Assembly (NCBI GenBank): GCA_023439545.1
Contig: JAEXNT010000031.1
Location: 25,994-89,993, forward strand
Reading direction: 5' to 3'
From: Bacillota bacterium
GTDB taxonomy: Bacteria; Bacillota; Clostridia; Acetivibrionales; DTU013
Length of the DNA: 64,000 nucleotides
Made by a program: the position numbers and the translations under genes. This document shows, piece after piece, positions 30,017 to 45,622 of the stretch. The notes under the pieces were generated by a model. It worked only from the letters and a program-made list of their open reading frames with translations, had not been told where the DNA came from and made no database searches. Position 1 is the first letter of the stretch. Each line of letters opens with the position of its first letter.

Positions 30017-30949
30017 CTACTTTAAGAAGTCCAACGCCGATTTTTCTATACCCTTCGCGTCGAGACCATAGTAGGCGAGCAGCTCGTCATACGGGCCCGA
30101 GCTTGCATAGGTCTTGGGTATCCCCAGACGCTTCACTCTTACCGGGCATTTTGAGCTGCATAACTCGGAAACCAGTGTTCCCAGGCCGCCGTCCGCGTAA
30201 TGCTCTTCCACGGTGATGATGCCTTTTGTTTTCAGCGCCGATTCTATGACCAGTTCCTCGTCGATCGGACATACTGTCGGCATGCCAATCAGCCGGATAG
30301 AAACGCCTTGCTTTGAAAGGTTTTCGGCGGCTTCCACCGCGGCTTTTGTCGTGGAACCCGTGGATATTATGGTTACGTCTGTGCCCTCTCTGATGATGCG
30401 GCCCTTTCCGATTACGAAGGGCTGCTCGTCGAACAGGACGGGGATCTTCGGATTTCCGATGCGCATGTAGACCGGCCCCTCATGCTCCATCATGGCTTTT
30501 ACCGCCGTCCTTATTTCTGTCGGATCCTGCGGCGCAAGGACCACAACGCCCGGGATCATCCTTATGATGGCGAAATCCTCGAGAGAGTGATGGGTCGCGC
30601 CCAGGTCGGAATAGGATATGCCGCAGTTACGGCCTACGACCTTGACATTCTGCTTCATATAGCCCAGATCATTCCTGAACATCTCGAACGGTCTTGATGT
30701 CACAAAAGGAGCGATAGCGCAGAATACCGGTATCCTGCCTGTCGTTGCAAGGCCTGAGGCAACGCCTATTACGCCCTGTTCCATGATTCCGCATTCAAAG
30801 TACCTGCCCGGATATTGTTTTACAAAATCTCCGAATCCGGAGCTTTTCCCGCTGTCTGCGGAAAGAACGACTATTTTTTCATTTTCTTTGGCCAGCTCTG
30901 TTACCGCTTTGCCGAATTCTTTCCTCGGATCAAGATATTCTCCGATCAT
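30017..30949 (-). CDS. Transketolase, C-terminal (pyrimidine-binding) subunit, copy 1
   Basis: 310 aa; ECGIMEQ, split-type transketolase; overlaps the N-terminal subunit gene by 4 nt. Confidence 0.9.
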   Translation of the reverse strand: MIGEYLDPRKEFGKAVTELAKENEKIVVLSADSGKSSGFGDFVKQYPGRYFECGIMEQGVIGVASGLATTGRIPVFCAIAPFVTSRPFEMFRNDLGYMKQNVKVVGRNCGISYSDLGATHHSLEDFAIIRMIPGVVVLAPQDPTEIRTAVKAMMEHEGPVYMRIGNPKIPVLFDEQPFVIGKGRIIREGTDVTIISTGSTTKAAVEAAENLSKQGVSIRLIGMPTVCPIDEELVIESALKTKGIITVEEHYADGGLGTLVSELCSSKCPVRVKRLGIPKTYASSGPYDELLAYYGLDAKGIEKSALDFLK

Positions 30950-31809
30950 CTATTTTCACCTGATTTCTGCTCCAGAGCCAGAGTTTTGTTTTTGATTTCC
31001 TTTTCAGCCTCTTCAGCCTCTTCCTTGGATGGACTCCAATAATGGAATGCAGCGTTGCCTTCTCCTTCGGACAACCCCTTGCATTTGACGGTGCGGGCGA
31101 TTATAGCCGTAGGCCTGCCCTTTTCCAGGGGTATCGAGTCGAGGGTTTCTACTATCTCCTGCATGCTGTTGCCGTCTATATTCCTTACTGCCCAGCCGAA
31201 TGCCCTGAAGCGCTCGTCTATGGGCGTCATGTTCATGACGTCCTCCACTTTTCCGCTGATCTGAAGACCATTGTAATCGACAAATAAAACAATATTGTCC
31301 AGATGATAATGGGATGCCACCGAGGCCGCCTCCCAGTTGGAGCCTTCCGGCAGTTCGCCGTCTCCCATCACGACATATATCCTTGCAGCCGGATGCTCAT
31401 CCCTCATGCCCAGCGCCATACCGCAGGCTATCGATAAACCGTGTCCCAGCGCGCCCGTATTTGCTTCCACTCCAGGCAGCTTGTGCATGTCCGGATGACC
31501 CGGGATCTTTGAATGCAGGCTACCGTAGGTATCCAGCACCTCCTTTGTGAAATACCCCTTTTCTGCAAGCACTGCGTATTGAGCCAGGCACTTATGGCCT
31601 GCCGACAAAATAAAACGGTCCCTGTCTTCTTTTTTGGGATTCCTGGGATCGATATTCATCGAGTGAAAGTAAACGGCTGTGACTATATCCAGGCAGGAGA
31701 ACGCCCCGCCTATGTGGCCGTGTTCGCTGGCCTTGATCATTCGTATCACATTTTCACGGCATTTTGATGCCGTCAGTTCCAAAGCGGCTATTTCATTCAA
31801 ATCTGCCAT
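30946..31809 (-). CDS. Transketolase, N-terminal (ThDP-binding) subunit, copy 1
   Basis: GHIGGAFS, SAGH, GDGELPEGSNWEA motifs. Confidence 0.9.
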   Translation of the reverse strand: MADLNEIAALELTASKCRENVIRMIKASEHGHIGGAFSCLDIVTAVYFHSMNIDPRNPKKEDRDRFILSAGHKCLAQYAVLAEKGYFTKEVLDTYGSLHSKIPGHPDMHKLPGVEANTGALGHGLSIACGMALGMRDEHPAARIYVVMGDGELPEGSNWEAASVASHYHLDNIVLFVDYNGLQISGKVEDVMNMTPIDERFRAFGWAVRNIDGNSMQEIVETLDSIPLEKGRPTAIIARTVKCKGLSEGEGNAAFHYWSPSKEEAEEAEKEIKNKTLALEQKSGENR

Positions 31810-32249
31810 CAGATCTCACCTTTTTCATAAGAGACTATTCTGTCGACTTTTGATTTAGACCTCGAATTCGGATCGTAGGCCAATCCTAGATATTCTTTTA
31901 CAAAGCATTTTGCCGATTCTATCCCGGTAACCTGCGCACCCATTGTAATAATGTTGGCGTTATTGCTGAGCTGCGCCCTCTGCGCCTGGTATATATCGGT
32001 GACCAAAGCCGCGTAGGCGCCTTTGACTTTGTTGGCTGCAATACTGACGCCGATGCCCGTCCCGCAGATCAGGACGCCCCTGTCGCATTTGCCTGCCGCA
32101 ACGTCGGTAGCTACTTTAATTGCAGTGTTTGCGTAAATTGGATCGTCGCTGCCGTAATCCACGCATTCGTGCCCCAATGATTCGATATACGGGATCAATG
32201 CCATTTTAAAATCTGTTGCGTTAGGATCGCACCCGATAGCTATTTTCAT
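31809..32249 (-). CDS. rpiB: RpiB/LacAB-family sugar-phosphate isomerase
   Basis: MKIAIGCD..., ICGTGIGVSIAANK; 146 aa; TGATG overlap with the tkt gene. Confidence 0.85.
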   Translation of the reverse strand: MKIAIGCDPNATDFKMALIPYIESLGHECVDYGSDDPIYANTAIKVATDVAAGKCDRGVLICGTGIGVSIAANKVKGAYAALVTDIYQAQRAQLSNNANIITMGAQVTGIESAKCFVKEYLGLAYDPNSRSKSKVDRIVSYEKGEI

Positions 32250-32290
32250 ATCATTACCTCCATTTTATTGAATATCCGGTTTGAATTTTA

Positions 32291-32335
32291 ACTTGTATAT
32301 ACCTGTATAATATAATAAGGTTTCTGATTTGTCAA
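32291..32335 (-). promoter_or_regulatory. Promoter plus GTATATAC-core operator (site A) for rpiB-tkt
   Basis: On the minus strand: TTGACA (32335-32330), 17-nt spacer, TATTAT (32312-32307), then ACAGGTATATACAAGT (32306-32291). Confidence 0.7.
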
Positions 32336-32413
32336 CTGCATGCTGATCGTTATTGAATGAATGCATCGCAAAAGTGAAACAAAAGAACCGCCCCTGCGTT
32401 TCAGTTAATAATC

Positions 32414-32460
32414 TTGACTGTAGGTAATGCCGATGCTAGAATAAAGCTGTATATACAGGT
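32414..32460 (+). promoter_or_regulatory. Promoter plus operator (site B) for the kinase-dhaKL operon
   Basis: TTGACT (32414-32419), 17-nt spacer, TAGAAT (32437-32442), then AGCTGTATATACAGGT (32445-32460, a 12-bp perfect palindrome). Confidence 0.7.
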
Positions 32461-32612
32461 AAGTACAGTGGTATATAGTTATAATTACTGTAATAATAAG
32501 TCATTATAAGCTTAATGGCTGAAAAAATATACAGTTTATTTGTTCCAAGCAGGATGTTCAGCGCCCTTGAGGCGCGAATTACAATTAAAACATCCGAAAA
32601 GGAGAAAAACGT

Positions 32613-33953
32613 ATGGAAAAGACTCTTCTTCAAAGACTTGACACCGATATGGACGCAGAGCTGGCCAGGCTCATCGGGCTATTCAGGGAGAATAAGGCGC
32701 CCGTTTTCAATTCCTACATGAAAGAACACTTCAGGATTGCCAAGAGCAAGCCCGACGAATTTTCAAACCACCCGCCCGTATTGGCAATCTCACTGGGCGG
32801 AACCAATCTCAAGCTTATGATCGCAGGGATGAAGAACGGCACGATGATGGTCGAGCATGTCAGGGCGATGCAGATCCCCGCACACCCGGTTGAATTCACC
32901 GAATTTTTTGACGAGATACTGATGTGTGACGAGTATATAAAAAATTACCTGAGCAAAAATGAAAATACTTACGTAGGCTTTTCCTTCCCGATGGCTATCT
33001 TTGACGGCGTACCCTTTCATCCCACAAAAGTTCCCAATTTAAAGGGAGTCATCATACGGGATATGGACGACCTGAGCCAGAAATTCAATTTTGGAAATAA
33101 TTTTAATACTTACCTGAAGAATCGTGGCTTCCATCCGGTCGAGCTGTTTTACCAGTCCGATGGCATCATTGCGCACCACGGCGCAGTAGCGCTATGCGAT
33201 ACGGAGCTCGAAGACAGCACCACGCTGATCATTTGCGGCACGGGCATGGCGACCGGCGACGAGGAAAATTACATCCAGCTGGGTATAGCTGAAATAATAG
33301 ATAATGATGAAGAAATATATCCCGCCTCTGAAACGGAGAATCACCAGTACCAATATGCATTGGCGGGCAAGGGACTGTTCGGGTTGATGAGAAGATGCAT
33401 CGGGATCGCATCGGAAGAACCGGGATCGCACGTTGCAGGGCATGATCTGAGCGAGTATTTTACGGACTCACAGGGCTCGAAGACGACTGTTCAGATATGG
33501 GAAAGCAGCCTTGAAGGGTGTATCCCGGAGGATGTGGCCGGAACGATATCGGACAGGGTCGGTCCCGAAGCTTACGCCGAGCTGCAGAAAATAGCGGGAA
33601 AAATCGTGGAAAGGGTCATTGGTTCGATCGCAAACAGCGTTGTTTCCACGATTGTAAAGATGGGTCCCGCCGCAAATAAAAAGGGCCATCTGGTATTTTT
33701 CGAGGGCAGCGTCGTAAACAACAGAAATATTTTGCCGAGGGTAAAGACCGAGATAGCCCGGAGGATCAATAATGCAGCGTTATACAGCCGCATTGGGGTA
33801 CCGCAGCCCTTGCTGCCTGATATGGAAAGATCGCTGAAGCCTTTGAAAGCCTGCGGGGGGCTTCCCGAAGCATTGCTTGCGGACGTCGACATCACGCTGA
33901 TAGGAGCGGCGTCATCTGTCATGGCGGAGACCTGTCTGAGAAAGCAGGGATAA
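32613..33953 (+). CDS. Hexokinase-family (ASKHA) sugar kinase, paralogue 1
   Basis: Collinear with eukaryote-type hexokinase motifs: LAISLGGTNLKL (phosphate-1), GFSFP, IICGTGMA (phosphate-2), AGKGLFGLMRR, FFEGSVV. 446 aa. Confidence 0.6.
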   Translation: MEKTLLQRLDTDMDAELARLIGLFRENKAPVFNSYMKEHFRIAKSKPDEFSNHPPVLAISLGGTNLKLMIAGMKNGTMMVEHVRAMQIPAHPVEFTEFFDEILMCDEYIKNYLSKNENTYVGFSFPMAIFDGVPFHPTKVPNLKGVIIRDMDDLSQKFNFGNNFNTYLKNRGFHPVELFYQSDGIIAHHGAVALCDTELEDSTTLIICGTGMATGDEENYIQLGIAEIIDNDEEIYPASETENHQYQYALAGKGLFGLMRRCIGIASEEPGSHVAGHDLSEYFTDSQGSKTTVQIWESSLEGCIPEDVAGTISDRVGPEAYAELQKIAGKIVERVIGSIANSVVSTIVKMGPAANKKGHLVFFEGSVVNNRNILPRVKTEIARRINNAALYSRIGVPQPLLPDMERSLKPLKACGGLPEALLADVDITLIGAASSVMAETCLRKQG

Positions 33954-34053: not shown

Positions 34054-35052
34054 ATGAAAAAAATTCTGAACAAGAACGAAAGTTTCGTGGATGAAAGCCT
34101 GGAAGGCATCCTGGCGGCACACGGCGATATGCTGAAGGCTTGCGGCAGCGATATAAGAGCCGTTTTCAGGGCGGACTGCCCCGTGAAAAACAAGGTTGCC
34201 ATAGTAACGGGAGGCGGCTACGGACACCTGCCCGTTTTCCTGGGATATGTGGGTAAAGGCCTTGCGGATGGCGTTGCGGTCGGAAATGTATTCACTTCTC
34301 CGAGCTGCGATACGATCATAAACGTCACCAGAGAGGTCGACGGCGGAAAAGGCGTGCTTTACCTGTTCGGGAACTATGTCGGAGACGGCATGAATTTCGA
34401 TATGGCCGGGGAGATCGTCGGGCTCGACGGCATAGAGACAAGGATCGTAAAGGTTTCGGACGATATAGCCTCTGCGCCGCGAGAAAGCTGGCAGCAAAGG
34501 CGTGGCGTGGCGGGGCTGTTTTTCGTTTATAAAACTGCAGGCGCAAAAGCCGAGCAGCTGGCTGACCTCGAAGAAGTGCAGAGAATTGCTGAAAAAACCG
34601 CAGAACGCACCGCGACGATGGGCATAGCCATGTCCTCCTGCTGGGTGCCGGGGGCGGGGAGGCCTATATTCGAGATCAGTGAGGAAGATATCGAGGTAGG
34701 CATGGGGATCCATGGAGAACCGGGGGTAGAGCGCATTAAACTGGAAACTTCCAAAGAGATCGCGCAAAGAATAGTACCGAGGCTGGTCGAAGACCTGGGA
34801 CTGAACGACAAGTCCAGGGTTTCGGTGCTTGTCAACGGTTTGGGCTCCACGACTCGTGAAGAGCTTTATATACTGTACAGGGATGTCGATCAGCTGCTTA
34901 AGAGTTTCGGGATTACTACAGTGAAGGTTTTCGTAGGCGAGTACGCCACATCGCTGGAGATGGCGGGAGCCTCGGTCTCCATACTGGAGCTTGACGATGA
35001 ATTGACCGGGCTTTTGGAAGCGTCGGCATGTTCGCCTTTTATCAAATTATAG
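34054..35052 (+). CDS. dhaK: Dihydroxyacetone-kinase family, DhaK (substrate-binding) subunit
   Basis: GGGYGHLPVFLGYVGKG, NVFTSPS, GMGIHGEPG (covalent His retained). Confidence 0.85.
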   Translation: MKKILNKNESFVDESLEGILAAHGDMLKACGSDIRAVFRADCPVKNKVAIVTGGGYGHLPVFLGYVGKGLADGVAVGNVFTSPSCDTIINVTREVDGGKGVLYLFGNYVGDGMNFDMAGEIVGLDGIETRIVKVSDDIASAPRESWQQRRGVAGLFFVYKTAGAKAEQLADLEEVQRIAEKTAERTATMGIAMSSCWVPGAGRPIFEISEEDIEVGMGIHGEPGVERIKLETSKEIAQRIVPRLVEDLGLNDKSRVSVLVNGLGSTTREELYILYRDVDQLLKSFGITTVKVFVGEYATSLEMAGASVSILELDDELTGLLEASACSPFIKL

Positions 35053-35064
35053 GGAGTGGGTAAA

Positions 35065-35691
35065 ATGGCAATAGGAATAAATCAAGTTATCGAGGTCTTG
35101 TTGAAATCGGCGGAAGTAATAACCGCGTCCAAGGATCAACTCGAACAGCTCGACAGTGCCTCAGGCGACGGGGACCTCGGGATATCCATGAAAAGAGGGG
35201 CAGACGCCATCAAAGCAGTTCTGTCCGCCATAGGCGCTGAAAACGATATAGGAAACCTGCTTATTAAGTGCGCGATGGCCTTCAACAAGGAGGCTCCCTC
35301 AACGCTCGGAACGCTGTTGTCCTCCGCGATGCTGGCGGCAGGGAAGGAAACAAAAGGCAGAAGTGAGCTATCGGAAGGCGATGTTGTCAAACTTGCGCAG
35401 ATAATGACAAAAAGTATAATGGATCGCGGCAAGGCGGCTCTTGGAGATAAAACCATACTTGACGCCATGATCCCGATGAGCGAAGCCATGAGCAACAGCT
35501 TCGAACAGGGCGGAAGCCTTGCCGAATCGGTCAATGCCGGCGCTGCTGCGGCTGCGGCAGGGGCGGAAGCTACGAAGGAGCTCGTTGCAAAGGCTGGTAG
35601 GGCCAAATGGATAGGGGAGCGTACGAACGGCTTTCTTGACGGCGGCGCGGTGCTGTGTTCGATAGTCATAAACCACCTGGCGAAGGTTTAG
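35065..35691 (+). CDS. dhaL: Dihydroxyacetone-kinase family, DhaL (nucleotide-binding) subunit
   Basis: ATG lies 8 nt after AGGGAG. DSASGDGDLG Mg/ADP site. About 208 aa. Confidence 0.85.
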   Translation: MAIGINQVIEVLLKSAEVITASKDQLEQLDSASGDGDLGISMKRGADAIKAVLSAIGAENDIGNLLIKCAMAFNKEAPSTLGTLLSSAMLAAGKETKGRSELSEGDVVKLAQIMTKSIMDRGKAALGDKTILDAMIPMSEAMSNSFEQGGSLAESVNAGAAAAAAGAEATKELVAKAGRAKWIGERTNGFLDGGAVLCSIVINHLAKV

Positions 35692-35847: not shown

Positions 35848-35857
35848 ATATAGCCGA

Positions 35858-35902
35858 TTGACAGAGGTGAACATATAGAGTATTATACTTGTATATACAG
35901 CT
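35858..35902 (+). promoter_or_regulatory. Promoter plus operator (site C) ahead of a roughly 200-nt leader and gntR
   Basis: TTGACA (35858-35863), 17-nt spacer, TATTAT (35881-35886), then ACTTGTATATACAGCT (35887-35902). Confidence 0.7.
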
Positions 35903-36065: not shown

Positions 36066-36094
36066 TTGACAATGTCCGATAAATTAACTATAAT
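36066..36094 (+). promoter_or_regulatory. Second, operator-less promoter immediately upstream of gntR
   Basis: TTGACA (36066-36071), 17-nt spacer, TATAAT (36089-36094). Confidence 0.6.
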
Positions 36095-36120
36095 TTTCAT
36101 ATATTATGGAAGGTAAAATT

Positions 36121-36840
36121 ATGCTTGAACGTTCGAATCCGAAGCCCTTATATCTGCAATTGACAGAGATAATAAGGGAAAAAATCCATAACGGCGAATG
36201 GGAAGCCAATAATCCGATACCATCGGAGAATGAGCTCAGCAAGATTTACGGACTGAGCAGGATGACCGTCAGATCCGTTATCACTCAATTCGTTTCCGAG
36301 GGCTTGCTGTACCGTGTACCAGGCAAGGGTACCTTTGTAGCAGAGCCTAAGATCACTGCGAAGTCTTTGTCCTATGCCGGCATAAGGGAACAGCTCGAAC
36401 AAATGGGATATGCGATATCTACCCGGATACTGAGCACCGAGACAATCGGCGCCGCCGGTCAGGTCGCGGAAAACCTGGCTTTGGAAAGCGGCAGTCCCGT
36501 ATATATGATAAAAAGGCTGAGGTACATCGGTGAAAATCCTCTCAGCCTGCATGTGAGCTATGTGCCCGTGGAAATGTGCAAAGGCCTCGATTCTGAAAAA
36601 CTGGAGAAGGAGCAGCTTTGTGTCGTACTCAAAAATGAGTACGGCCTGTCGCGCGGCAAAGTAGTTGAAACTCTCGAATCCTGTATGGCAACGACAACCG
36701 AAGCGAAGCTTCTGGAAATAAAGGCGAACCATCCTCTGCTGCTGCTTGAAGATATCATATATTCCGGCGACGGGATACCTTTCGAATATTCAAAAGTCCT
36801 TTTCAGAGGCGACAAGATCAAGATCAAAATGGAATTCTGA
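36121..36840 (+). CDS. GntR-family regulator, HutC subfamily (UTRA effector domain)
   Basis: Winged HTH ...PSENELSKIYGLSRMTVRSVITQFVSEGLLYRVPGKGTFV. The ATG at 36121 has a GGAAGG RBS. The ORF-track start at 36106 is too close to the -10 box. Confidence 0.85.
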   Translation: MLERSNPKPLYLQLTEIIREKIHNGEWEANNPIPSENELSKIYGLSRMTVRSVITQFVSEGLLYRVPGKGTFVAEPKITAKSLSYAGIREQLEQMGYAISTRILSTETIGAAGQVAENLALESGSPVYMIKRLRYIGENPLSLHVSYVPVEMCKGLDSEKLEKEQLCVVLKNEYGLSRGKVVETLESCMATTTEAKLLEIKANHPLLLLEDIIYSGDGIPFEYSKVLFRGDKIKIKMEF

Positions 36841-36966
36841 CAGTGTTTTCTGAATATGCTCTGCCGACTGATTTTCGCAAATATGCGAAAGTCTTTTTGC
36901 GCATCTCTTTTTAGCCTTGATTATAGCTATGAAACCATTCTTTTATTTCACTAAGGGGGAAATAAT

Positions 36967-38313
36967 ATGAGCAACAACTTACCATTTTGCCGGTTGAATT
37001 GCAGCCTGGGCTCATTGCTGAGTCCGGCCAATGAAGAAGGAAATATCGCCATAATAAGTTCCGATGAAGATTATGTCAGGAGAGTCCAGGACAAACCCCT
37101 CGGACTTGACGAGTTTATAAAATTGAAGGATTTTGTGAAATACATCGGAGTAACCCAAAACTTCAGGGAGATCGTCGACTTCTTCAAATCTCCGAAGGGA
37201 GAAACGCCGGCTGGTTTCCGCGTGGAATACGTGCTGGAGGGTAGTGTTCTGAAAGCCGATCTGGCGAGGGACATCGCCTATGACCGGAACGGAATCAGGC
37301 GGCCGACGAATCTGCTGTTTTCAGCAGATTCCGCGAACCCGTACGAGGTGGCGCCTGTAAGTAACCTCCTTGCCAATCTGACCTGCAACCCCGGGATAAT
37401 ATACGATCTTTTCATAAACAACCCGAAAGCCAATATTGGCAATAAATATAAGACAAGAGACGAGGTCATGGAGGAGATCGGCAGAATACTGGGTCCCGGC
37501 GCCGATATAAGCGTCGAGCTGAACAATCCCTTCTCCGCTTCGGAACAGGAGATTCTCGAGGAAGCTGCGAAATTCAAGGAGATGCTCTCGAAATACAGGG
37601 TTGTTATAAAAGTGCCGCATACCGGTCCCGTCAACAAGGATAACGTCGGGGAGCTTCTGATCGGGGATAAGAAATTCCAGAGACGTTACAGCGACGGCTC
37701 CGTAGAGGACATGTTCAGGGGCCATAACCTGGCGCTCATGCTCCACGAACACGGATACAGGGTCAACTTCACGCTGATGTTCGAGCCGTACCAGACAGCG
37801 CTGGCGCTCCAGGCCAGGCCGTATTTCATCAACAGCTTCATCAGGCACAGGGGCGCCCACACACACATGATAAAAGGACTTCTTGAAGCATACAATACCA
37901 GCGGAGAGACGGCTTTCCTGAAACAGCTGCGCAGTTATATGATCGATACCGATTACTTCTCGGCAAAGGACACGGACATAGACTTTTTCAAGGTGAAGGA
38001 AACCGCAGAGCTTTTTGTTGAACAGAGAAATGCGGATACTGTTGAAGGATCAGACGGTCTCGACGGAGTGAGGCACAACCTCAGGTGGCTGAGGCAGGCC
38101 AACCTGCCCGATACCAGGCTTATAATCTGCAGCATGGAAGGTGAAAGGAACTACCCCGATATCGACAGGCTGTTGACAGAAGAGGAATTCAGAGATATGG
38201 TAGGTAAAGTGGTCATTACGGCAGAGCCCGGATACCTCGCTAGATTCACCTCGACTCCGCAGGTAGTGGCTTACCAGAGAAGATTCATGAATGCGGCAAA
38301 CGGACAAAAGTAA
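36967..38313 (+). CDS. Transaldolase/fructose-6-P-aldolase superfamily protein, long form with an N-terminal extension of about 110 aa
   Basis: Collinear with Fsa/Tal motifs: FSADSANP...NLTCNPGII, VVIKVPHT (Schiff-base Lys), NFTLMFEPYQTALALQARPYFINSFIRHRG. 448 aa, versus about 220 aa for Fsa-type enzymes. Confidence 0.6.
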   Translation: MSNNLPFCRLNCSLGSLLSPANEEGNIAIISSDEDYVRRVQDKPLGLDEFIKLKDFVKYIGVTQNFREIVDFFKSPKGETPAGFRVEYVLEGSVLKADLARDIAYDRNGIRRPTNLLFSADSANPYEVAPVSNLLANLTCNPGIIYDLFINNPKANIGNKYKTRDEVMEEIGRILGPGADISVELNNPFSASEQEILEEAAKFKEMLSKYRVVIKVPHTGPVNKDNVGELLIGDKKFQRRYSDGSVEDMFRGHNLALMLHEHGYRVNFTLMFEPYQTALALQARPYFINSFIRHRGAHTHMIKGLLEAYNTSGETAFLKQLRSYMIDTDYFSAKDTDIDFFKVKETAELFVEQRNADTVEGSDGLDGVRHNLRWLRQANLPDTRLIICSMEGERNYPDIDRLLTEEEFRDMVGKVVITAEPGYLARFTSTPQVVAYQRRFMNAANGQK

Positions 38314-38330: not shown

Positions 38331-39899
38331 ATGTGGCAGGCGGCTATCCCGTTTTCTAATGTTTTTATTGCCGCCGTAATTGCGGCGGCGCCTATAATAT
38401 GGATATTGTTCGGCATGCTGAAGCTTCAGCTGCCATCGTACAAAACAGGGCTCATAGCGCTTGCGATGGTGGCGCTGTCTGCGCTCCTGATATGGAAGAT
38501 GCCTGCCGGGCTGCTGATCCAGTCCGTCGTGGAAGGTGTGATGCTCGGTCTTTTCCCCATAATATGGGTCATATTTGCAGCCATATTCACCTATAACCTT
38601 CTCGTAAAGAGCGGCGCAATGGAAAAGATAAAGCGGATGCTTTCGAGCATATCGACGGATCCCCGTGCGCAGGTGATCATAATAGCATTTGCCTTCGGTG
38701 GGTTCATGGAGGCCACGGCAGGCTTCGGGACCGCTGTTGCGATCCCTGTGACCATTCTTATTTCAATGGGTTTCGAAGCTGAGCTTGCAGCCGTACTGTG
38801 CCTCGTCGCGAACACTGTGCCTGTGGCTTTCGGAGTCGTGGGCATACCTGTCATAACGCTCGCACAGCTGACAGGTCTGCCGCTTGGAGAGGTTTCGTTC
38901 AACACCGCGCTTCAACTGCTGCCGTTATCCGTGGTATTGCCTTTGATACTTGTCATCATAACTACCGGAAGGATCAGGGACGTAAAGGGAATGATCCCTG
39001 CAGCAGTCGTCAGCGGCATCACCTTTGCGGCAGGCCAGACACTGGTCGCGTGGGCCGTGGGTCCGGAGCTTGCTGCGGTAGTCGGTTCGATACTTGCCCT
39101 GGCGGCTTCTGTAGTGTGCGTCAGACTGCAGGGAAACAAAAAAGTCTGGCAATTCCCGGGCCGGATACAAACCGGTGCGGAGAAGGGCCCGAAGGTCGGG
39201 TTGGTTGAAGGTCTCAAGGCCTGGAGCCCATATATTTTTATCCTGGTATTCGTACTTGCTACCAGGCTGCTGCCCGCGCTGAGTTTTCTGAACAAGGCGC
39301 CGTTCACGGTGAAGCGCCTGTTCTATACCGGCAAGGGCGGATCGCCTATGAGCTTCCAGCTCCTGTCCAACCCCGGTACGATCATACTGATTGCAGCCAT
39401 ACTCGGCGGACTGATCCAAAGGGTAAGCTTCAAGGATATCCTCTCAGTCGGTTGGATGACGCTGAAGCAGATTACGAAAACAACGGTTACCGTGTTGACG
39501 ATCATACCTCTTTCGAAGGTAATGGGCTACAGCGGTATGATCTCAGTGATTTCGACGGGACTTACCAACGTGACGGGATCGTTCTTCCCTCTCATTTCGC
39601 CCTTCATAGGCGCACTGGGAACGTTCATAACGGGCAGCGATACTTCCGCTAACGCTTTATTCGGCGAATTGCAGAGGCAGACGGCGCAGCAGATCGGGAG
39701 CAGCCCGGCCTGGCTGGCAGCCTCCAATGCTGCCGGTGCGACCATCGGGAAGATGATATCGCCGCAAAGTATTGCAATAGCGGTTTCAGCCATAGGCTTG
39801 CCGGAGCTTGAAGGAAAGATTATGAAAAGGACTCTGAAATATGCAGTTGTTTTCGTAGTAGTCCTTGGAATAATAGTATACGCGGGTAATATAGGTTGA
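38331..39899 (+). CDS. L-lactate/glycolate permease (LctP) family transporter
   Basis: 522 aa, polytopic. The conserved FAFGGFMEATAGFGTAVAIP segment is typical of the LctP family. Confidence 0.8.
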   Translation: MWQAAIPFSNVFIAAVIAAAPIIWILFGMLKLQLPSYKTGLIALAMVALSALLIWKMPAGLLIQSVVEGVMLGLFPIIWVIFAAIFTYNLLVKSGAMEKIKRMLSSISTDPRAQVIIIAFAFGGFMEATAGFGTAVAIPVTILISMGFEAELAAVLCLVANTVPVAFGVVGIPVITLAQLTGLPLGEVSFNTALQLLPLSVVLPLILVIITTGRIRDVKGMIPAAVVSGITFAAGQTLVAWAVGPELAAVVGSILALAASVVCVRLQGNKKVWQFPGRIQTGAEKGPKVGLVEGLKAWSPYIFILVFVLATRLLPALSFLNKAPFTVKRLFYTGKGGSPMSFQLLSNPGTIILIAAILGGLIQRVSFKDILSVGWMTLKQITKTTVTVLTIIPLSKVMGYSGMISVISTGLTNVTGSFFPLISPFIGALGTFITGSDTSANALFGELQRQTAQQIGSSPAWLAASNAAGATIGKMISPQSIAIAVSAIGLPELEGKIMKRTLKYAVVFVVVLGIIVYAGNIG

Positions 39900-39907: not shown

Positions 39908-39933
39908 GGCCGGCGTATTGACATACGCCGGCC
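39908..39933 (+). terminator. GC-rich stem-loop after the permease gene (no T run)
   Basis: GGCCGGCGTAT-tgac-ATACGCCGGCC. Confidence 0.4.
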
Positions 39934-40015
39934 ATGAACGCATAATATTGATTACACCGCATAAATTGCATGCGAGCCTCGCAATTTCGTCCGGGTTAAG
40001 CATGGGGGATATTGA

Positions 40016-41515
40016 ATGATCAAAGTTATGATCGTGGAAGATGTGGATATCATAAGGGAGGATGTCATACGGCTGATCAACTGGCAGGAACACGGTTTTA
40101 TCGTGATAGCCGAAGCCAGGAACGGCGAGATGGGTCTCGAAATGTTCAGGAAGCACAAGCCTGAAATTGTCATTACCGATATCAGGATGCCTGTCATGAC
40201 CGGCCTCGATATGATACAGGAGATACAGAAGACCGACAAGGATACGCAGTTCATTCTCTTGACGGACTACGGCGAGTTCGAGTATGCAAAAAAGGCCATG
40301 TATCTGGACGTCCATTCTTATCTTCTGAAATATGAACTGGACGATGACATGTTGCTCCGCGAACTCGAAAAAGTGCGCGCAATCGTTGAAAAACAGCGGA
40401 ATATAAACAGGATGACGAAGTCGGAATATCTCAAGGATTGGCTCATCCATGGCAAACGGGAAGCGGACGATCCCCAAAGCTTTTTTGGCTGGTACGGCCA
40501 CTGCTCCCTGATCGTAATAGATGCAAAAGGCTTCGACCGTAAGTCGTCCGAGCTTTATAACGACCTGCGGGAACAGCTGAATTCCGAAGCTCAGACTTAT
40601 GAATTCGAATATATAGAAATGTCCCCGCAGGAGTATGTCATTTTTTTAAAGGTATCCGAAAGCTTCAGCGAGTTGAAAAGCATGAATTATATAAGGACGT
40701 TTATCAGCCGCCTGCAGACATTGTTCAGGGAGACTTGCGCATTGGAGACGGCCGCCGCCGTGGGCGCGTATATCTATGGCTCTGGTGATGTCGCCGACGC
40801 CTACAGAAAAACAAAAAAACTTTTGCAGCAGAAAGTTTTTTACCCGAAAAGCTGCATCATAGATTTCCCCCCGCCGGAGCCTCCGGCAGCCCGGAAAGAG
40901 GAGGTCGCGCAGCTCCTGAAGTCCATCAGGTCCAATATACAAAACCTTAATGCCGACGAACTGCACGATCAGATACCCAGGCTTTTTACAGGCCTTCTGC
41001 GCGCGATCAAAAGTACCGAGCTGCTTGAAAACAGCGTCAGAGAACTTACCTTTGCGATCGCGAGCCGCAGCGTTCAGGGAAAAACGGACAACATGGGCGA
41101 AGTGCTTGATGAGATCATGGACTCCGTTCGCAATTATAACGTATATGTGCTTGCCGAGCTCTTCGACAAGGCGATAGAAATGCTAGGCGCCGATTTCGGT
41201 ACACGGTATTCCAAGCGTGTGAATGCCATCATAAGATACATTTCCGAGCATTACGGCGATGATATCAGTCTCTATGACCTTTCAAAGGAACTGGACCTCA
41301 GCGTGATTTATATCAGCCAGTTATTCAAGAAGGAAGTGGGCATTACCTTCTCGGCGTATCTGACGAAGGTCAGGATCGATAAGGCGATCGAGCTGCTCAG
41401 GACAGGACGCTACAAGGTGTACGAAGTGAGTAAAATGGTCGGCTATCAGACGGTCCAGTATTTCAGCAATATATTCAAAAAGGAAACCGGCAAAAAACCG
41501 GGCGATTTCTGTTAA
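40016..41515 (+). CDS. Response regulator with AraC-type HTH output (YesN-like)
   Basis: REC domain (VITDIRMPVMTG) plus C-terminal AraC HTH pair. 499 aa. Confidence 0.85.
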   Translation: MIKVMIVEDVDIIREDVIRLINWQEHGFIVIAEARNGEMGLEMFRKHKPEIVITDIRMPVMTGLDMIQEIQKTDKDTQFILLTDYGEFEYAKKAMYLDVHSYLLKYELDDDMLLRELEKVRAIVEKQRNINRMTKSEYLKDWLIHGKREADDPQSFFGWYGHCSLIVIDAKGFDRKSSELYNDLREQLNSEAQTYEFEYIEMSPQEYVIFLKVSESFSELKSMNYIRTFISRLQTLFRETCALETAAAVGAYIYGSGDVADAYRKTKKLLQQKVFYPKSCIIDFPPPEPPAARKEEVAQLLKSIRSNIQNLNADELHDQIPRLFTGLLRAIKSTELLENSVRELTFAIASRSVQGKTDNMGEVLDEIMDSVRNYNVYVLAELFDKAIEMLGADFGTRYSKRVNAIIRYISEHYGDDISLYDLSKELDLSVIYISQLFKKEVGITFSAYLTKVRIDKAIELLRTGRYKVYEVSKMVGYQTVQYFSNIFKKETGKKPGDFC

Positions 41516-41585: not shown

Positions 41586-41631
41586 TTGACTGAGCCCGGC
41601 CATTGTGCTATATTTTACTGTATATACAAGT
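41586..41631 (+). promoter_or_regulatory. Promoter plus operator (site D) for the GH2-kinase operon
   Basis: TTGACT (41586-41591), 17-nt spacer, TATATT (41609-41614), then TACTGTATATACAAGT (41616-41631). Confidence 0.7.
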
Positions 41632-41742: not shown

Positions 41743-44241
41743 ATGAAAAACACTGTAATACTCAAAGAAGGATGGTCGATCAGAAAAATAAATCCCGCTG
41801 ACAGTCTTGACGAAAAGCGGATAGCGGAGTACTCGGCGGGTAACAGCGGGGAACTGTCTGCCGGGATGCCCGCACAGGTCCATGAAATATTGCTGGGGTA
41901 CGGTAAGATAGAAGATCCGACAGTTCTGGGGAATACTGAAAAATGTCTCTGGGTGTCCGAATCCGACTGGATATACAAATGCGAATTCAATGCAACCAAA
42001 GCAGGCAAAAGGCAGTATCTGAACTTCAAAGGGCTCGACACACTGGCTGACATCTATCTGAACGGCAGTCATATCGCCAGCCATAACGATATGTACATTC
42101 CACTCAGGGTAGATGTGACAGAGACCTTGAGGGATACCAATACGCTTCTCGTCCATTTTCACTCGCCCCAGGAATATCTCAGGCATCACAGCTGCGCCGC
42201 GATCGACAGCGGCAAGGTGGCAAAGCATAAATTACTCAGAAAGCCCGTGCATGATTTTATAGATTTTCTTGGTACAAAGCCGTATTTTACAAATATAGGC
42301 ATATTCGCCGACGTCATACTCGAGACGGCGGAGGAATGTGAGCTCGTATACGCCGACATACAGGCGAAGCTCAGCGATGATTACAAGAACGGTATTTTGC
42401 AGATAACTGCGGACGGTCTGGGCCGGCTCGAGAACGGTTCACTGGAGATCACTGTCACTGCGCCCGACGGGAAGGTTTGCGGTAAGCTTTCGGTGAACCT
42501 CGGAAAAACCGGGGCGGACGAATGGGCTAAGAATGCCAGGCTTTCAATTGAGGAACCTGCCCTTTGGTGGCCGCGCACTCTCGGCGGACAGCCCCTCTAC
42601 AAGGTTGAGGTCGGTTTGACGGACAACGGTGTTCTGACGGATAAAGTTGTAAAGAACATAGGTTTCAGGAAGATAGAAATGGCCGAGCCGTTTGACTTTA
42701 CCATAAACGGGAGGCCTTTGAAGCTCTGGGGGGCGTGTTTCGCGCCTACGCAGAGGTTAACCAACGTATGGAGCAGCAGGATTGCCAATACTCTTATGGA
42801 TATGGTCGAGAACGCCAACATGAATATCATGAGGATATGGGGCGAGGGAGTGCCGTACCCGGACGAATTGTACGATGAGGCGGACAAGAGGGGACTCCTG
42901 CTCTGGCAGGAATTCTACATGAGCTACGGAATGCATCCGGATGAAGAGTGGTACAAGGAACTCTGCAGAAAAGAAGCCGAATATGTTGTAAAGAGATTGA
43001 AGAACCGCGCTTCGGTTTTGATGTGGTGCGGCGGCAACGAGACCTCGATGAGTGTGCAATACGACCACCCGGGCGAGAAATGCTACGGTGACGAGATCTA
43101 TCTCGAAGATTACAAGAAAATATGCGAAAGCTTGGATCCGGACCGGTATTATCATCCGACTTCACCCTACGGAGGCGCTTTTGCGAACAGTCCGCGCGAG
43201 GGCGATACCCATGGGTATACTCATATCTGGTACGTACCGGGAGCCGATTACCCCGTATTCCTTTCCGAGAATACAAGGGTTTCGACGCCTGCCCTGAAAA
43301 GCATGAAAAAATACATGGGGGATAAGCTGTGGCCCGATGGCTATACGCCAATGGTGAGAAACCATCAGGAGCCTCCGATGCCGGAAACATGGATTGAGCG
43401 TGCTCCCGGCGGCGTATGGGAACGAACCAAAAATTTTGAGAAGTTCTATGACGCCGATAATCCGGAAGACCTTATCTACAGGCTGAGCTCGGCGCACACA
43501 CAGCATATAAGGGAAACGGCGGAAAGATCGAGAAGGGGCAGGCCTGCATACGATACTTCCGGTAAAAGGATCTGCAAGGGGCATACCGTATGGAAGCTGA
43601 ATGAACCGTATCCGGCCTTCTATTCAAGCATGATAGACTATTACCTCGAGCCGAATATGCCGTATTATGCTTTAAGGCGGGCCAACGAACCCGTACTGCT
43701 TTCGTTCGACGTAGGTAACGACATATACCTGTGGATCGTTAATGACAGCGCCGTTGCGGCAGGAGGGACTGTAGTCTGCGACCTGTTCAACCCGAGGACA
43801 AACTCTGTGATAAAGGAAATGAGGAAGGAAGTAACCGTATCGCCCGATGAATCCAAGGTCATTTTCAGGCTAGACGAATTCGGTCAGTTCAGGCGTGAGA
43901 ATTTCCTCTACGCACGGCTTGAGGACAAAAACGGGAACGTCATTGCCAGAACCAACGATTACGTCGACAGCGAGCGTTATTTGTACTTCCCCGACGCAGC
44001 TCTCAAATTGCGGCAGGAGGGAGAAGAGCTTGTAATAAAGGCGGATAAATTCGCAAGGTGCATAGAGCTGTCGGGCAACGATAACGGAGATGAATTCGGC
44101 TGGTTCTTCCAGGACAATTATTTTGATCTGATGCCCTGGGAAACGAAGAGGGTCAGGGTCCTCGGGAAACACAGCAAGGGGCTGGTCACGGCCAAAGCCC
44201 GGTTTTCTTCGCACAGGGCGGAAATACAATACAAAAAGTAA
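41743..44241 (+). CDS. Glycoside hydrolase family 2, beta-mannosidase-like, paralogue 1 (intracellular)
   Basis: 832 aa. RIWGEGVPY...LLLWQEF, acid/base WCGGNE, nucleophile region FLSEN. No signal peptide. Confidence 0.8.
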   Translation: MKNTVILKEGWSIRKINPADSLDEKRIAEYSAGNSGELSAGMPAQVHEILLGYGKIEDPTVLGNTEKCLWVSESDWIYKCEFNATKAGKRQYLNFKGLDTLADIYLNGSHIASHNDMYIPLRVDVTETLRDTNTLLVHFHSPQEYLRHHSCAAIDSGKVAKHKLLRKPVHDFIDFLGTKPYFTNIGIFADVILETAEECELVYADIQAKLSDDYKNGILQITADGLGRLENGSLEITVTAPDGKVCGKLSVNLGKTGADEWAKNARLSIEEPALWWPRTLGGQPLYKVEVGLTDNGVLTDKVVKNIGFRKIEMAEPFDFTINGRPLKLWGACFAPTQRLTNVWSSRIANTLMDMVENANMNIMRIWGEGVPYPDELYDEADKRGLLLWQEFYMSYGMHPDEEWYKELCRKEAEYVVKRLKNRASVLMWCGGNETSMSVQYDHPGEKCYGDEIYLEDYKKICESLDPDRYYHPTSPYGGAFANSPREGDTHGYTHIWYVPGADYPVFLSENTRVSTPALKSMKKYMGDKLWPDGYTPMVRNHQEPPMPETWIERAPGGVWERTKNFEKFYDADNPEDLIYRLSSAHTQHIRETAERSRRGRPAYDTSGKRICKGHTVWKLNEPYPAFYSSMIDYYLEPNMPYYALRRANEPVLLSFDVGNDIYLWIVNDSAVAAGGTVVCDLFNPRTNSVIKEMRKEVTVSPDESKVIFRLDEFGQFRRENFLYARLEDKNGNVIARTNDYVDSERYLYFPDAALKLRQEGEELVIKADKFARCIELSGNDNGDEFGWFFQDNYFDLMPWETKRVRVLGKHSKGLVTAKARFSSHRAEIQYKK

Positions 44242-44284
44242 GCTGCAGTAAAAAAGCTGTTAACGGTAAAAGGAGGTAGCCGGT

Positions 44285-45622
44285 ATGAAGGATTTGATCT
44301 CCAGGCTGAGGGTAGATCCCGACAGGGATCTCAAAAGGCTTCTGGAAGCTATGGACAATAACGGGGTCTCCATACTGCCCACCGGCATGGAAAGGCATTT
44401 TGAGATAGCCAGGCTTAAGCCGGCCGGGTTCCGGAACCACGATACCGTGCTCGGCATTTCCATAGGCGGTTCGAATACGAAGGTAATCCTTGCATCCATG
44501 AGAGACGGGAGGCTGGTCATCCATCATCTTGCCGCCAGGGCGAACCCTCTGACGAAAACGCACTATACCGATTACTTCGATTCCTTTTTGTTTGGGGATA
44601 AAGCAATCAGGGAATACATGAGTAATTCCAAAGACCTGTGCGTCGGCATATCCGTGGCGGTTCCCATAATTGACGGAGTACCGTTCCATAAGCACAAGAT
44701 ACCTACTATAGAAGGCCTGATCGCGCGTGATTATGAGAGGGACGCGGCGACCCATAACATATATGAAAACATGCGGGCATACCTGAAAGAGCGGGGAGTG
44801 GCGGTAAGGTCGCTGTTTTGCCAGTTCGATTCCATAGTGGCAAACTACGGCGGCGCATCGCTCAGCGAGCTCGGACCGGATGAAAAGACAATGCTGCTTG
44901 TCTGCGGTACCGGGCTGGCAGCCGCTATAGAGCAGAATACGGTGTCTATCGGGATGGCCGACGTATTCGACAAAACTCTTGATGACGATACCCTTCTGCC
45001 TTTTGACCTTACCGAAGGCCATCAATACCAGTATGCGATTGCGGGAAAAGGCCTCTATGGCCTTATGGAGAGGGCTGTCAGACTAAAGGCGCGAGAGGCG
45101 GGTTCGAAGCTGCAATCGTTCGATCCCGCAGTTTATTTCAAAACAGCTTACGACACCAGATCGGTAGTAGAGTTGTGGGAAAGTACGCTGGGACACGGTA
45201 TCATGGGAAAAGCAAAGGAAATATTGAGCGAGGCCGGCTCCGATATGTTTTTTGAGCTGCAGGACATCGCTTCCGCAATAGTTGAGCGTGCCATTACAGG
45301 GCTCGCTAACTGTGCGGCGGCGGCGATCTACGCGGACTCTTCCGCCGGCGGCAAACCGCATACCGTATTTTTCGAGGGTAGTATAGCCTTGAACGGGAAT
45401 ATGCTGCCAAGGATCAAAAACGAGATCATCCACAGGATCGGCTCGAGCCCTGCGTATGACGAACTGAATATTCCCAGGCCTCCGGTACCTTTGCTGTGCA
45501 AGACCCCGATGCCTGTTATTTCAGATAATGCGGGTATTCCGGAAAGGGAATTGCAGCAGGTAGACCTGACTGTAAAGGGAGCCGTAACCTCGGCTATAGC
45601 CGAAGATATCCTTAAAGCCTGA
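44285..45622 (+). CDS. Hexokinase-family (ASKHA) sugar kinase, paralogue 2
   Basis: Collinear with the 32613 gene: LGISIGGSNTKV, GISVAVP, LLVCGTGLA, HQYQYAIAGKGLYGLMER, VFFEGSIA. Confidence 0.6.
   Translation: MKDLISRLRVDPDRDLKRLLEAMDNNGVSILPTGMERHFEIARLKPAGFRNHDTVLGISIGGSNTKVILASMRDGRLVIHHLAARANPLTKTHYTDYFDSFLFGDKAIREYMSNSKDLCVGISVAVPIIDGVPFHKHKIPTIEGLIARDYERDAATHNIYENMRAYLKERGVAVRSLFCQFDSIVANYGGASLSELGPDEKTMLLVCGTGLAAAIEQNTVSIGMADVFDKTLDDDTLLPFDLTEGHQYQYAIAGKGLYGLMERAVRLKAREAGSKLQSFDPAVYFKTAYDTRSVVELWESTLGHGIMGKAKEILSEAGSDMFFELQDIASAIVERAITGLANCAAAAIYADSSAGGKPHTVFFEGSIALNGNMLPRIKNEIIHRIGSSPAYDELNIPRPPVPLLCKTPMPVISDNAGIPERELQQVDLTVKGAVTSAIAEDILKA

Follow-up and report, generated by a model that had tools for sequence, protein, structure and literature searches.

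Which sugar is broken down by a gene set that joins a split transketolase, an RpiB-type isomerase, DhaKL, two further kinases, a long transaldolase-like enzyme and glycosidases, and does such a set act as one pathway? The question is raised by a locus of a Bacillota bacterium (Clostridia, Acetivibrionales, DTU013) that lies in a stretch of 64,000 nucleotides (nt), hereafter the window (GenBank assembly GCA_023439545.1, contig JAEXNT010000031.1, positions 25,994 to 89,993 of the forward strand; all coordinates below count from the first letter of the window). A preliminary description read positions 30017-45622 as an operator-linked catabolic module leading from a glycoside or small hydroxy-compound into the pentose-phosphate pathway. 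The evidence assembled here points to a regulon, repressed by a HutC-type GntR regulator, for a glycosidically bound rare sugar that would be degraded by a phosphorylative route via a short or branched ketose phosphate. This reading is favoured tentatively, with a confidence that falls a little short of even. D-apiose is its leading candidate, a possible but doubtful identification, the substrate being otherwise a similar short or branched sugar. What is familiar in the locus is a repressor-controlled sugar cluster feeding the pentose-phosphate pathway; what is new is an orphan kinase family, an unassigned subfamily of glycoside hydrolase family 2 (GH2), a large unnamed transaldolase family, and transketolase and RpiB clades mis-annotated as housekeeping.

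Co-regulation is written into the promoters. A near-perfect palindrome, CTGTATATACAG, occurs at 32447, 35889 and 41618, just 3′ of -10 elements. The pattern YTGTATATACARS has seven matches where 0.31 are expected by chance: six are these three palindromes, each counted on both strands, and the seventh is a one-mismatch site at 14967, inside the first of two LeuA/HMGL-type open reading frames (ORFs), which is probably a chance occurrence. A degenerate copy with one mismatch, cTTGTATATACCt (32292-32304), lies downstream of the rpiB-tkt promoter. All four module copies sit 1-5 nt past a consensus-like -10 element, where the operators of repressors are usually found; the operator linkage claimed for these genes is real. 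The promoter-like site at 32335-32307 (minus strand) ends just before the degenerate copy. The site at 32414-32442 (plus strand) ends 4 nt before the palindrome of the kin1-dhaKL promoter, CTGTATATACAGG (32447-32459), that at 35858-35886 (plus) ends 2 nt before the palindrome of the distal gntR promoter (35889-35901), and that at 41586-41614 (plus) ends 3 nt before the palindrome of the GH2-kin2 promoter (41618-41630).

Operators at four promoters define four transcription units. The first, on the minus strand, comprises rpiB (31809-32249, PF02502), tktN for the N-terminal, thiamine diphosphate (ThDP) subunit of the split transketolase (30946-31809, Pfam Transketolase_N) and tktC for its C-terminal, Pyr/C subunit (30017-30949, Pfam Transket_pyr and Transketolase_C). 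Both sugar-phosphate enzymes are atypical and are denoted RpiB* and TK*. The other three units are on the plus strand: kinase 1 (32613-33953) with dhaK (34054-35052, PF02733, E 2e-111) and dhaL (35056-35691, PF02734); gntR (36106-36840) with the transaldolase-like gene (36967-38313) and the LctP-family permease gene (38331-39899, PF02652 and TIGR00795); and a GH2 gene (41743-44241) with kinase 2 (44285-45622) and the genes that follow. Every gene named in the preliminary description was found at its position by the ORF map and by Pfam and NCBIfam scans of the window. A response regulator with AraC-type output (YesN-like by Pfam; 40016-41515, plus strand), absent from that list though inside the span, has a promoter-like site of its own at 39918-39946.

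The regulator combines a GntR helix-turn-helix with a UTRA domain in Pfam, and its palindromic operators overlap the target promoters, features that predict a regulon of the HutC subfamily. A second, proximal gntR promoter (36066-36094), a perfect TTGACA-17-TATAAT, has no operator. Judged from sequence, the two promoters imply basal repressor synthesis with autoregulated extra transcription via a leader of about 200 nt. At 36870-36893, in the gap that separates gntR from the transaldolase-like gene, lies a hairpin with a T-run behind it; no clear promoter or operator follows, so that the transaldolase-like gene and lctP may depend for their expression on transcription that starts at the gntR promoters and reads through. 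Induction would probably come from a phosphorylated intermediate that binds to the UTRA domain.

The span first described is real, but the unit is longer and runs downstream past kinase 2 to at least 58010. The added genes, all on the plus strand, encode a YesM-like sensor histidine kinase (HAMP, His_kinase and HATPase domains; 45626-47539), an ABC importer (47552-50852; lipoprotein solute-binding protein 47552-48985, permeases 49112-50011 and 50016-50852), a second GH2 paralogue of 810 amino acids (aa) (50863-53295), an aldo-keto reductase (AKR; 53285-54253, PF00248), a third GH2 paralogue of 835 aa (54340-56847) and, as a probable member, a Zn-dependent polyol-type dehydrogenase (Zn-ADH; 56961-58010). 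The window locus is also present in metagenomic contigs and in one Bacillota metagenome-assembled genome (MAG) at about 91-95% identity. Recent horizontal transfer is not indicated, GC content and base composition being unremarkable.

The module consists of two layers. A back end conserved across phyla comprises the 448-aa transaldolase-like enzyme, split transketolase, RpiB, the HutC-type GntR regulator and often DhaKL; a rare front end comprises the ABC importer, three cytoplasmic GH2s, the AKR, the Zn-ADH and two kinases. The layering emerges from 84 loci around the transaldolase-like gene, many on short contigs, in which partners were sought by tblastn with the window proteins. Split transketolase was found in 27 of the 84, RpiB in 21, a GntR homologue in 17 and DhaK in 12; the orphan kinase and the GH2 were found in none (0/84), which makes the back end widespread, not unique to this locus, and the front end a rare addition. 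Kinase neighbourhoods were collected separately: 19 loci from a scan of 185,579 species genomes and three metagenomic loci, 22 together. In 13 of these, a GH2 of the same subfamily is encoded no more than about 4 kb from the kinase; the kinase lies beside the transaldolase-like gene in L011, L022 and L023, beside split transketolase and RpiB in L019, L018, L111 and L015, and beside a GntR homologue in L015, L023 and L110. The set thus recurs elsewhere, both as kinase-GH2 and as transaldolase-like-transketolase pairs, and operators together with co-occurrence in distant taxa support the earlier idea of a coherent, co-regulated module feeding the pentose-phosphate pathway.

GntR homologues with 37-61% identity adjoin transaldolase-like, TK* or RpiB* genes in distant loci with the same operator, and the operator TGTATATACA recurs in distant loci wherever a HutC-type homologue is present. 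It stands upstream of the transaldolase-like gene in L038, L048, L051-L055, L068-L073 and L080, of rpiB in L015, L030 and L063, of dhaL in L030, of a class II aldolase gene in L053, and of the kinase and GH2 genes in L005 and L007, two loci with about 91-95% and 70-85% identity to the window, respectively.

The back end is found again, under the same operator, in Bacillota, Bacteroidota and Spirochaetes, and its operons vary in content. ORF clustering and Pfam reveal as other recurrent partners of the transaldolase-like gene a DHDPS-like aldolase, a 2-hydroxyacid dehydrogenase, DUF362, an RraA-like protein, PfkB and FGGY kinases, class II aldolase, HAD and PHP phosphatases, Zn-ADH and DeoC. 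The minimal core, in L114, is GntR-RpiB*-TK*-transaldolase-like. In L113, a Wansuia hejianensis-like contig, one long operon (1-16735) encodes a monosaccharide-type ABC importer, DhaL, DhaK, a four-subunit 2-oxoacid:ferredoxin oxidoreductase, TK*, acetate kinase, phosphotransacylase, an FAA-hydrolase, the transaldolase-like enzyme, RpiB* and GntR; the route there may end in a 2-oxoacid from which ATP is gained. DhaKL is its sole kinase, an indication that the core substrate is a small acyclic ketose. Bacteroidota show the fixed, PUL-adjacent order rpiB*-tktN*-tktC*-SBF-RraA-like-DUF362-transaldolase-like-DHDPS-like-2-hydroxyacid dehydrogenase-PfkB-SusC-SusD. This order was observed in wetland, sludge and sediment metagenomes (L024, L034, L042-L044, L047, L059, L076, L078), and these loci have neither a GntR homologue nor the operator.

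What, then, do the back-end enzymes do? The long transaldolase-like enzyme carries an N-terminal extension of about 115 aa and matches PF00923 weakly, over residues 120-292. It has at least 1775 homologues at 60-70% identity in Clostridia, Bacteroidota, Spirochaetes and others, named at most 'transaldolase family protein' or 'hypothetical'; no NCBIfam model matches it, and the family profile finds no chain of the Protein Data Bank (PDB) at E 0.01. Its AlphaFold (AF2) model (predicted local distance difference test, pLDDT, 82) matches fructose-6-phosphate aldolase (FSA) and short transaldolases (Foldseek E 2e-8, template modelling score, TM(target), 0.70-0.75, 15% identity). An hhalign comparison with E. 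coli TalB and FsaA places N141 at N35/N28 and K215 at K132/K85, and, for TalB, E184 at E96, N267 at N154, T269 at T156 and F291 at F178; the alignment probability of this mapping is low, but it is consistent with the fold match. The fold match and the aligned lysine place the protein in the transaldolase/FSA superfamily (PF00923), with a TIM-barrel fold and the Schiff-base lysine on strand 4. By its length and the lack of a matching curated model or solved sequence it falls outside the described transaldolase subfamilies (types of about 220, 317 and 360-390 aa). The catalytic set is that of a transferase (TalB Glu96, Asn154, Thr156, Phe178), not that of an aldolase (FSA Gln59, Tyr131). TalB F178Y and FSA Y131 are known discriminators of transferase and aldolase activity, and Glu, Asn-x-Thr and Phe at the catalytic positions therefore form a transferase pattern. 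A role as an FSA-type aldolase supplying DhaKL with dihydroxyacetone is disfavoured, the discriminating position being Phe and not Tyr.

The transketolase departs from its housekeeping counterparts at the residues that hold the substrate. Seven columns, E. coli R358, S385, H461, E468, D469, H473 and R520, were compared in an alignment to the C. hydrogenoformans split enzyme, its closest solved relative (6yaj), and to human transketolase. Canonical transketolases read R-S-H-E-D-H/Q-R and the window enzyme (30017-31809) reads R-S-N-D-L-H-N; the substrate channel of canonical transketolase (EC 2.2.1.1) is therefore altered by H461N, D469L and R520N. AptB of E. coli SE15, a subunit of the apulose-4-phosphate transketolase AptAB (EC 2.2.1.13) of the D-apiose pathway, reads A-T-N-P-L-H-G, and a second transketolase of the window (60419-61354) reads R-S-S-G-D-H-R. 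In every transketolase that is linked to the transaldolase-like gene, position 469 is Leu and position 461 is N, C or S. D469 binds the acceptor C2 hydroxyl, equivalent to the donor C4 hydroxyl (4R in normal donors), and H461 and R520 bind the distal phosphate; their loss would fit a donor that is short or branched, for instance a tetrulose-4-phosphate. TK* shares N at 461 and L at 469 with AptB. In the N subunit, 17 columns separate TK* from canonical split transketolases, and AptA has the TK* residue at eight of them and the canonical one at one. Overall identity of TK* to AptAB is 35-43%. These substitutions make the D-apiose precedent cited in the preliminary description apt at the level of active-site residues.

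TK* and canonical pairs occur together in L057, L061, L064, L069 and L073, and this coexistence means that the two transketolase types do different jobs. It also bears on a simple explanation of the locus, in which the GH2s free an aldopentose, the kinase makes a pentose-5-phosphate, RpiB isomerises it, and transketolase and transaldolase serve as an additional copy of the non-oxidative pentose-phosphate pathway. Kinase, RpiB, transketolase and transaldolase are the exact set for a pentose-5-phosphate, and the operon of L019 reads GH2-AKR-GH2-GH2-tktN-tktC-kinase-rpiB. This explanation is nonetheless very improbable: the substrate-binding residues of all three pentose-phosphate-like enzymes differ from those of the housekeeping forms, canonical transketolase pairs are present in addition to TK*, and DhaKL is left without a role.

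RpiB*, too, departs from the canonical form. Every module-linked RpiB reads D-P-C-T-S-N-N-x-S-K (R at x in the window) where C. thermocellum RpiB reads D-H-C-T-H-N-D-R-H-R. Catalytic Cys66 and Thr68 are retained; the residues of ribose-5-phosphate isomerase B (EC 5.3.1.6) at four positions are replaced (H10 to P, H99 to S, H134 to S, R137 to K). Absence of the histidine to which furanose ring opening is ascribed would fit an acyclic substrate. The top PDB match, 5ifz, has the S-N-N motif in common and is Brucella melitensis Q8YCV4, 99% identical to Q9ZB26, EryI, a D-erythrulose-4-phosphate isomerase of EC 5.3.1.34 (PMC6324003). The tetritol precedent brought forward at the outset is in this respect well chosen, since the best solved relative of RpiB* is Brucella EryI.

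DhaK and DhaL contain the confirmed Dak1 and Dak2 domains. Among NCBIfam models, both match best that of the fused 'dihydroxyacetone kinase family protein'; both subunits score below the cut-offs for the DhaKLM system that depends on the phosphotransferase system (PTS), at 350 versus 406 for DhaK and 123 versus 138 for DhaL, and no DhaM-type gene was seen among the annotated ORFs of the window. The LctP permease reaches the family level (TIGR00795, 440 bits, cut-off 341) and falls far below the equivalog cut-offs for L-lactate (310 versus 918) and glycolate (266 versus 1121); it is confined to close relatives and fits no scheme.

EryI-like RpiB* and DhaKL suggest another possibility, that two pathways share one repressor. 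The back end would then serve free C4 compounds (erythrulose, erythritol, threitol), with DhaKL as erythrulose kinase, RpiB* as D-erythrulose-4-phosphate isomerase, and transaldolase and transketolase absorbing erythrose-4-phosphate, and the GH2/kinase front end would serve an unrelated glycoside and be merely co-regulated. The resemblance of RpiB* to EryI, the closeness of DhaKL to the fused ATP-type family and its position as sole kinase of the Wansuia-like operon all agree with this. In related loci, moreover, a class II aldolase and a HAD or PHP phosphatase accompany or replace the transaldolase-like gene, a pair that could turn erythrose-4-phosphate into sedoheptulose-7-phosphate via the bisphosphate; the alternation favours erythrose-4-phosphate as a shared intermediate and keeps this explanation alive. 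Both Fba and Tal are reported to be required for erythritol use in Brucella (PMC11508834). Two unconnected pathways leave unexplained, however, the loss of D469, H461 and R520 in TK* and the coexisting canonical pairs. The kinase is linked to TK*, RpiB*, the transaldolase-like gene or GntR in loci that lack DhaKL (L019, L015, L011, L022, L023, L111), and the operator precedes GH2 and kinase in the window, L005 and L007. On balance this explanation is unlikely.

A hexose route through a 4S ketohexose-6-phosphate of the tagatose-6-phosphate type is a further alternative. The kinase would form a hexose-6-phosphate, RpiB* would act like LacAB to give the ketose-6-phosphate, and TK* would release xylulose-5-phosphate and D-threose-4-phosphate; RpiB* would convert the latter into erythrose-4-phosphate, from which transketolase and transaldolase would give back fructose-6-phosphate. 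D469, which normally contacts the 4R donor hydroxyl, is always Leu here, and the replacement fits a 4S hydroxyl. The RpiB/LacAB family includes galactose-6-phosphate isomerase, a hexokinase fold suggests phosphorylation at C6, and class II aldolase-family genes and Zn-ADHs occur in related loci, two families that the Agrobacterium pathway from altritol and galactitol to tagatose-6-phosphate also uses. DhaKL, however, is unable to act on hexoses and is the sole kinase in some core operons, RpiB* has no ring-opening histidine such as is expected for hexose or pentose phosphates, and the signature residues that TK* has in common with AptAB speak for short or branched donors. This hexose route accordingly receives little probability.

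The glycosidases resemble beta-mannosidases in part. The nearest solved structures are beta-mannosidases (5n6u, E 2e-59; BtMan2A), the five-domain GH2 architecture is present, and the acid/base Asn-Glu and the nucleophile Glu align with N461/E462 and E555 of BtMan2A, giving the catalytic Glu pair. The -1 subsite of beta-mannosidases (EC 3.2.1.25; W198-D199-W200, W533 and the W645 region) is, by contrast, remodelled in each of the three window paralogues and in all homologues linked to the kinase, a set denoted GH2*. FGWDWG becomes F-x-D/T-F/Y-L-G (FIDFLG in the GH2 at 41743-44241), RVWGGG becomes RIWGEG with an extra Glu, GDRHNW becomes GDTHGY, W533 becomes Y, and NDxWP becomes NEPYP. No NCBIfam equivalog is close to these enzymes. 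They would be mannosidase-like in architecture only and form a non-mannosidase subfamily. The GH2s and kinases have no signal peptide and the solute-binding protein is a lipoprotein, so that an imported glycoside would be hydrolysed in the cytoplasm.

These observations weaken the case for beta-mannosides, which the preliminary description had listed among the substrates to try. They also bear on an ordinary reading of the locus as beta-mannoside use, in which beta-mannosidases and a mannokinase lie by chance beside housekeeping pentose-phosphate and dihydroxyacetone-kinase genes. The solved relatives, the mannosidase Ig domains found by Pfam, and a GH5 and further ABC systems nearby could be cited for it; the WDW motif and several tryptophans are replaced in every kinase-linked GH2, mannose-6-phosphate isomerase is lacking, and shared operators and cross-phylum co-occurrence speak against chance adjacency, which leaves this reading extremely improbable.

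The two kinases of the front end form an orphan family. They are paralogues with 38% identity to each other, kinase 2 being the diverged copy, and neither matches any Pfam (E 1e-3) or NCBIfam model. A word-indexed search of 5.8 billion proteins returned 57 relatives, all without a name, and an exhaustive hidden Markov model (HMM) search of 1.84 billion representatives returned 84 matches at E <= 1e-3, with no bridging sequences toward hexokinases. The AlphaFold model (pLDDT 93.8) finds as its best Foldseek matches eukaryote-type hexokinases and glucokinases (E 1e-13, TM about 0.6, 13-16% identity), which make up all 50 of the top 50. The sole match at sequence level is the N-terminal phosphate-1 region of hexokinase-2 (E 1e-5); the family profile matched no chain among the PDB sequences. 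The model thus suggests a two-lobed ASKHA protein, and the designation 'hexokinase-family' given earlier holds at the level of the fold. In an alignment made by eye, glucokinase and the kinases appear to have in common the catalytic Asp, the T-K pair and the GTG motif, and S, A and Q appear to stand in place of the glucokinase sugar contacts N204, N231 and E290.

The 19 loci of the genome scan come from Oscillospiraceae, Lachnospiraceae, other Clostridia MAGs, Yeguia hominis and Treponema/Spirochaetia MAGs. The most distant member (32% identity, L110) stands in the order kinase-GH2-TRAP-GntR/UTRA-class II aldolase-PHP-Zn-ADH, and its Zn-ADH is 48% identical to that of the window; homologues of the window AKR occur in the kinase loci L006, L008, L015 and L019. 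A homologue of the LarA-type (nickel-pincer) racemases/epimerases abuts the kinase, near the AKR, in L008 (11346-12626) and L015, and suggests a step of 2-hydroxyacid or sugar-acid epimerisation in some versions of the front end.

The favoured reading, a regulon for a bound rare sugar, can be cast as a sequence of predicted steps. The two-component system and the ABC importer would take up an oligosaccharide or glycoside, from which the three cytoplasmic GH2s would free the sugar. The orphan kinases would phosphorylate it; alternatively, AKR and Zn-ADH would convert it via the alditol to a ketose, which DhaKL would phosphorylate. RpiB* would interconvert an acyclic aldose phosphate and a ketose phosphate of the tetrulose-4-phosphate type. 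TK* would move C1-C2 to glyceraldehyde-3-phosphate, forming xylulose-5-phosphate and a short product (dihydroxyacetone phosphate if the ketose is apulose-4-phosphate). Long transaldolase and transketolase activity would finally rebalance erythrose-4-phosphate and xylulose-5-phosphate to fructose-6-phosphate plus glyceraldehyde-3-phosphate.

One ground for naming D-apiose is that, among sugars common in glycosidic linkage, it is the one known to be degraded by routes with an Apt-type transketolase. Oxidative variants of apiose catabolism, as Carter et al. are said to have described in 2018, use DhaK-family erythrulose kinases and a DerI-type isomerase. Apiose is the best candidate also because E. 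coli swaps the isomerase for two oxidoreductases, as AKR and Zn-ADH might do here: the E. coli ST131 cluster ECSF_RS02670-02715, from which the AptAB sequences were taken in strain SE15, has two such enzymes in place of the isomerase (PMC13001218).

Several observations weigh against this interpretation. TK* is 35-37% identical to AptB and 42% to the C. hydrogenoformans split transketolase, that is, about equally close to both; the neighbour-joining grouping with AptB is weak, and R358 and S385, lost in AptB, are kept in TK*. The hallmark apiose genes, ApsI and the FGGY kinase AplK, have no orthologue in the window or related loci, the FGGY kinases of related loci being ruled out as AplK orthologues by an identity of about 25%, and no GH2 apiosidase was found in the literature on apiosidases. 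RpiB* scores 133 bits against an NCBIfam DerI equivalog cut-off of 240. The scheme could do without several of the parts present (the transaldolase, LctP, two separate hexokinase-fold kinases, the nearby glycerate kinase), and every reaction in it is deduced from sequence. Finally, a kinase subclade (L014, L016, L017, L021) lies among unrelated genes, and the orphan kinase family may lack a single function.

The context of that subclade, from gut Oscillospiraceae, is conserved and unrelated to carbohydrates: a DMT transporter, a small DUF protein, an SDR, gamma-glutamyltranspeptidase and RNase R.

The surroundings of the module in the window contain other units. A glycerate-2-kinase-like gene (58186-59427; DUF4147 and MOFRL, below equivalog cut-offs) ends the GH2/ABC string and converges with a tartronate-semialdehyde reductase cluster; it could tie either cluster to glycerate and, with LctP, hints at a C2/C3 acid by-product. 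That cluster (59517-63981, minus strand) is separately regulated and contains a bona fide 2-hydroxy-3-oxopropionate (tartronate semialdehyde) reductase (491 bits, cut-off 397), the second split transketolase, a xylose-isomerase-like TIM-barrel protein with weak hydroxypyruvate-isomerase/epimerase matches and a divergent GntR/FCD regulator. Together these genes suggest a pathway for C2/C3 compounds (hydroxypyruvate, glycolaldehyde) in which transketolase replaces glyoxylate carboligase. Upstream, 20982-29865 is a separate glycan-utilisation unit without operator, with an FAD-dependent oxidoreductase (PF12831; a 31% identical homologue occurs in kinase locus L009), a GH5, an ABC importer, a histidine kinase and a LuxR-type response regulator. 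The tandem LeuA/HMGL-type paralogues mentioned above (14901-18001) belong to an ilv/leu cluster and are probably a 2-isopropylmalate synthase and a citramalate or homocitrate-type synthase.

A broader proposal, put forward more tentatively than the regulon itself, is that the long transaldolase, Apt-like TK* and EryI-like RpiB* under a HutC-type repressor could form a second sugar-phosphate rearrangement system. It would run alongside the non-oxidative pentose-phosphate pathway, have short or branched ketose phosphates as its dedicated substrates, occur in several phyla and, here, be fed by a new GH2 specificity and a new kinase family, with which it would make up a new phosphorylative route for the breakdown of D-apiose or a different rare plant sugar. 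If true, it would give a function to a transaldolase-like family of well over a thousand members without curated model or name, and to transketolase and RpiB clades now annotated as housekeeping. It would also establish the kinases as a new family, add a new specificity to GH2, reveal a catabolic route for a plant-derived rare sugar in anaerobes of gut, termite gut, peat and sediment, and correct metabolic reconstructions that count these genes as ordinary pentose-phosphate enzymes. Two cultured carriers make the reading testable: Wansuia hejianensis has the back end, and Yeguia hominis NSJ-40 has the kinase together with the transaldolase-like gene and GntR.

How does the module compare with known systems? 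The earlier judgement that no textbook route accounts for it has stood: no member reaches the equivalog cut-off of a characterised pathway enzyme, and no published description of the module was found in the literature on the gene combination, apiosidases, erythrulose-4-phosphate or tetritol catabolism in anaerobes. The sulfoquinovose transketolase/transaldolase pathways were set aside, as GH31 sulfoquinovosidase, sulfosugar isomerase and sulfonate exporter are missing and three kinases are present.

Individual enzymes resemble known families in fold and differ in the substrate site. The window GH2s share the five-domain architecture, the NE acid/base and the E nucleophile with the beta-mannosidases BtMan2A (2je8) and DtMan (5n6u) and with the exo-beta-glucosaminidase CsxA, but their -1 subsite is changed from WDW to D-F/Y-L. 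The kinases share the fold, the N-terminal phosphate-1 motif and the GTG phosphate-2 motif with eukaryote-type hexokinases and glucokinase (PF00349/PF03727), whereas their lack of a Pfam match and low identity mark an isolated family. The long transaldolase differs from known transaldolases as a separate family of 430-460 aa with about 15% identity to them.

At the level of pathways, the non-oxidative pentose-phosphate genes of Clostridia (split TktAB, RpiB, Tal) have protein families and operon style in common with the module, which differs in its replaced transketolase and RpiB substrate-binding residues and in its control by a sugar-type repressor. The tetritol and erythritol pathways (LerK/DerK and DerI of M. 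smegmatis; EryA-D, EryH and EryI of Brucella) share the EryI-signature isomerase, a DhaK/DhaL-family kinase and the need of a transaldolase or aldolase to absorb erythrose-4-phosphate. The module, unlike them, has neither an Ery/Eyt-type tetritol dehydrogenase/kinase set nor a TIM-type EryH/LerI; its DhaK and DhaL are separate subunits, and it is linked to glycosidases and an atypical transketolase. With the D-apiose transketolase pathway (ApsI or two oxidoreductases, FGGY AplK, AptAB) it shares a split transketolase with H461N and D469L, a xylulose-5-phosphate output and an oxidoreductase pair that could replace the isomerase in both. It adds to that pathway an RpiB-type isomerase, a long transaldolase, GH2s and an oligosaccharide importer, and its kinases are of the hexokinase-fold or DhaKL type.

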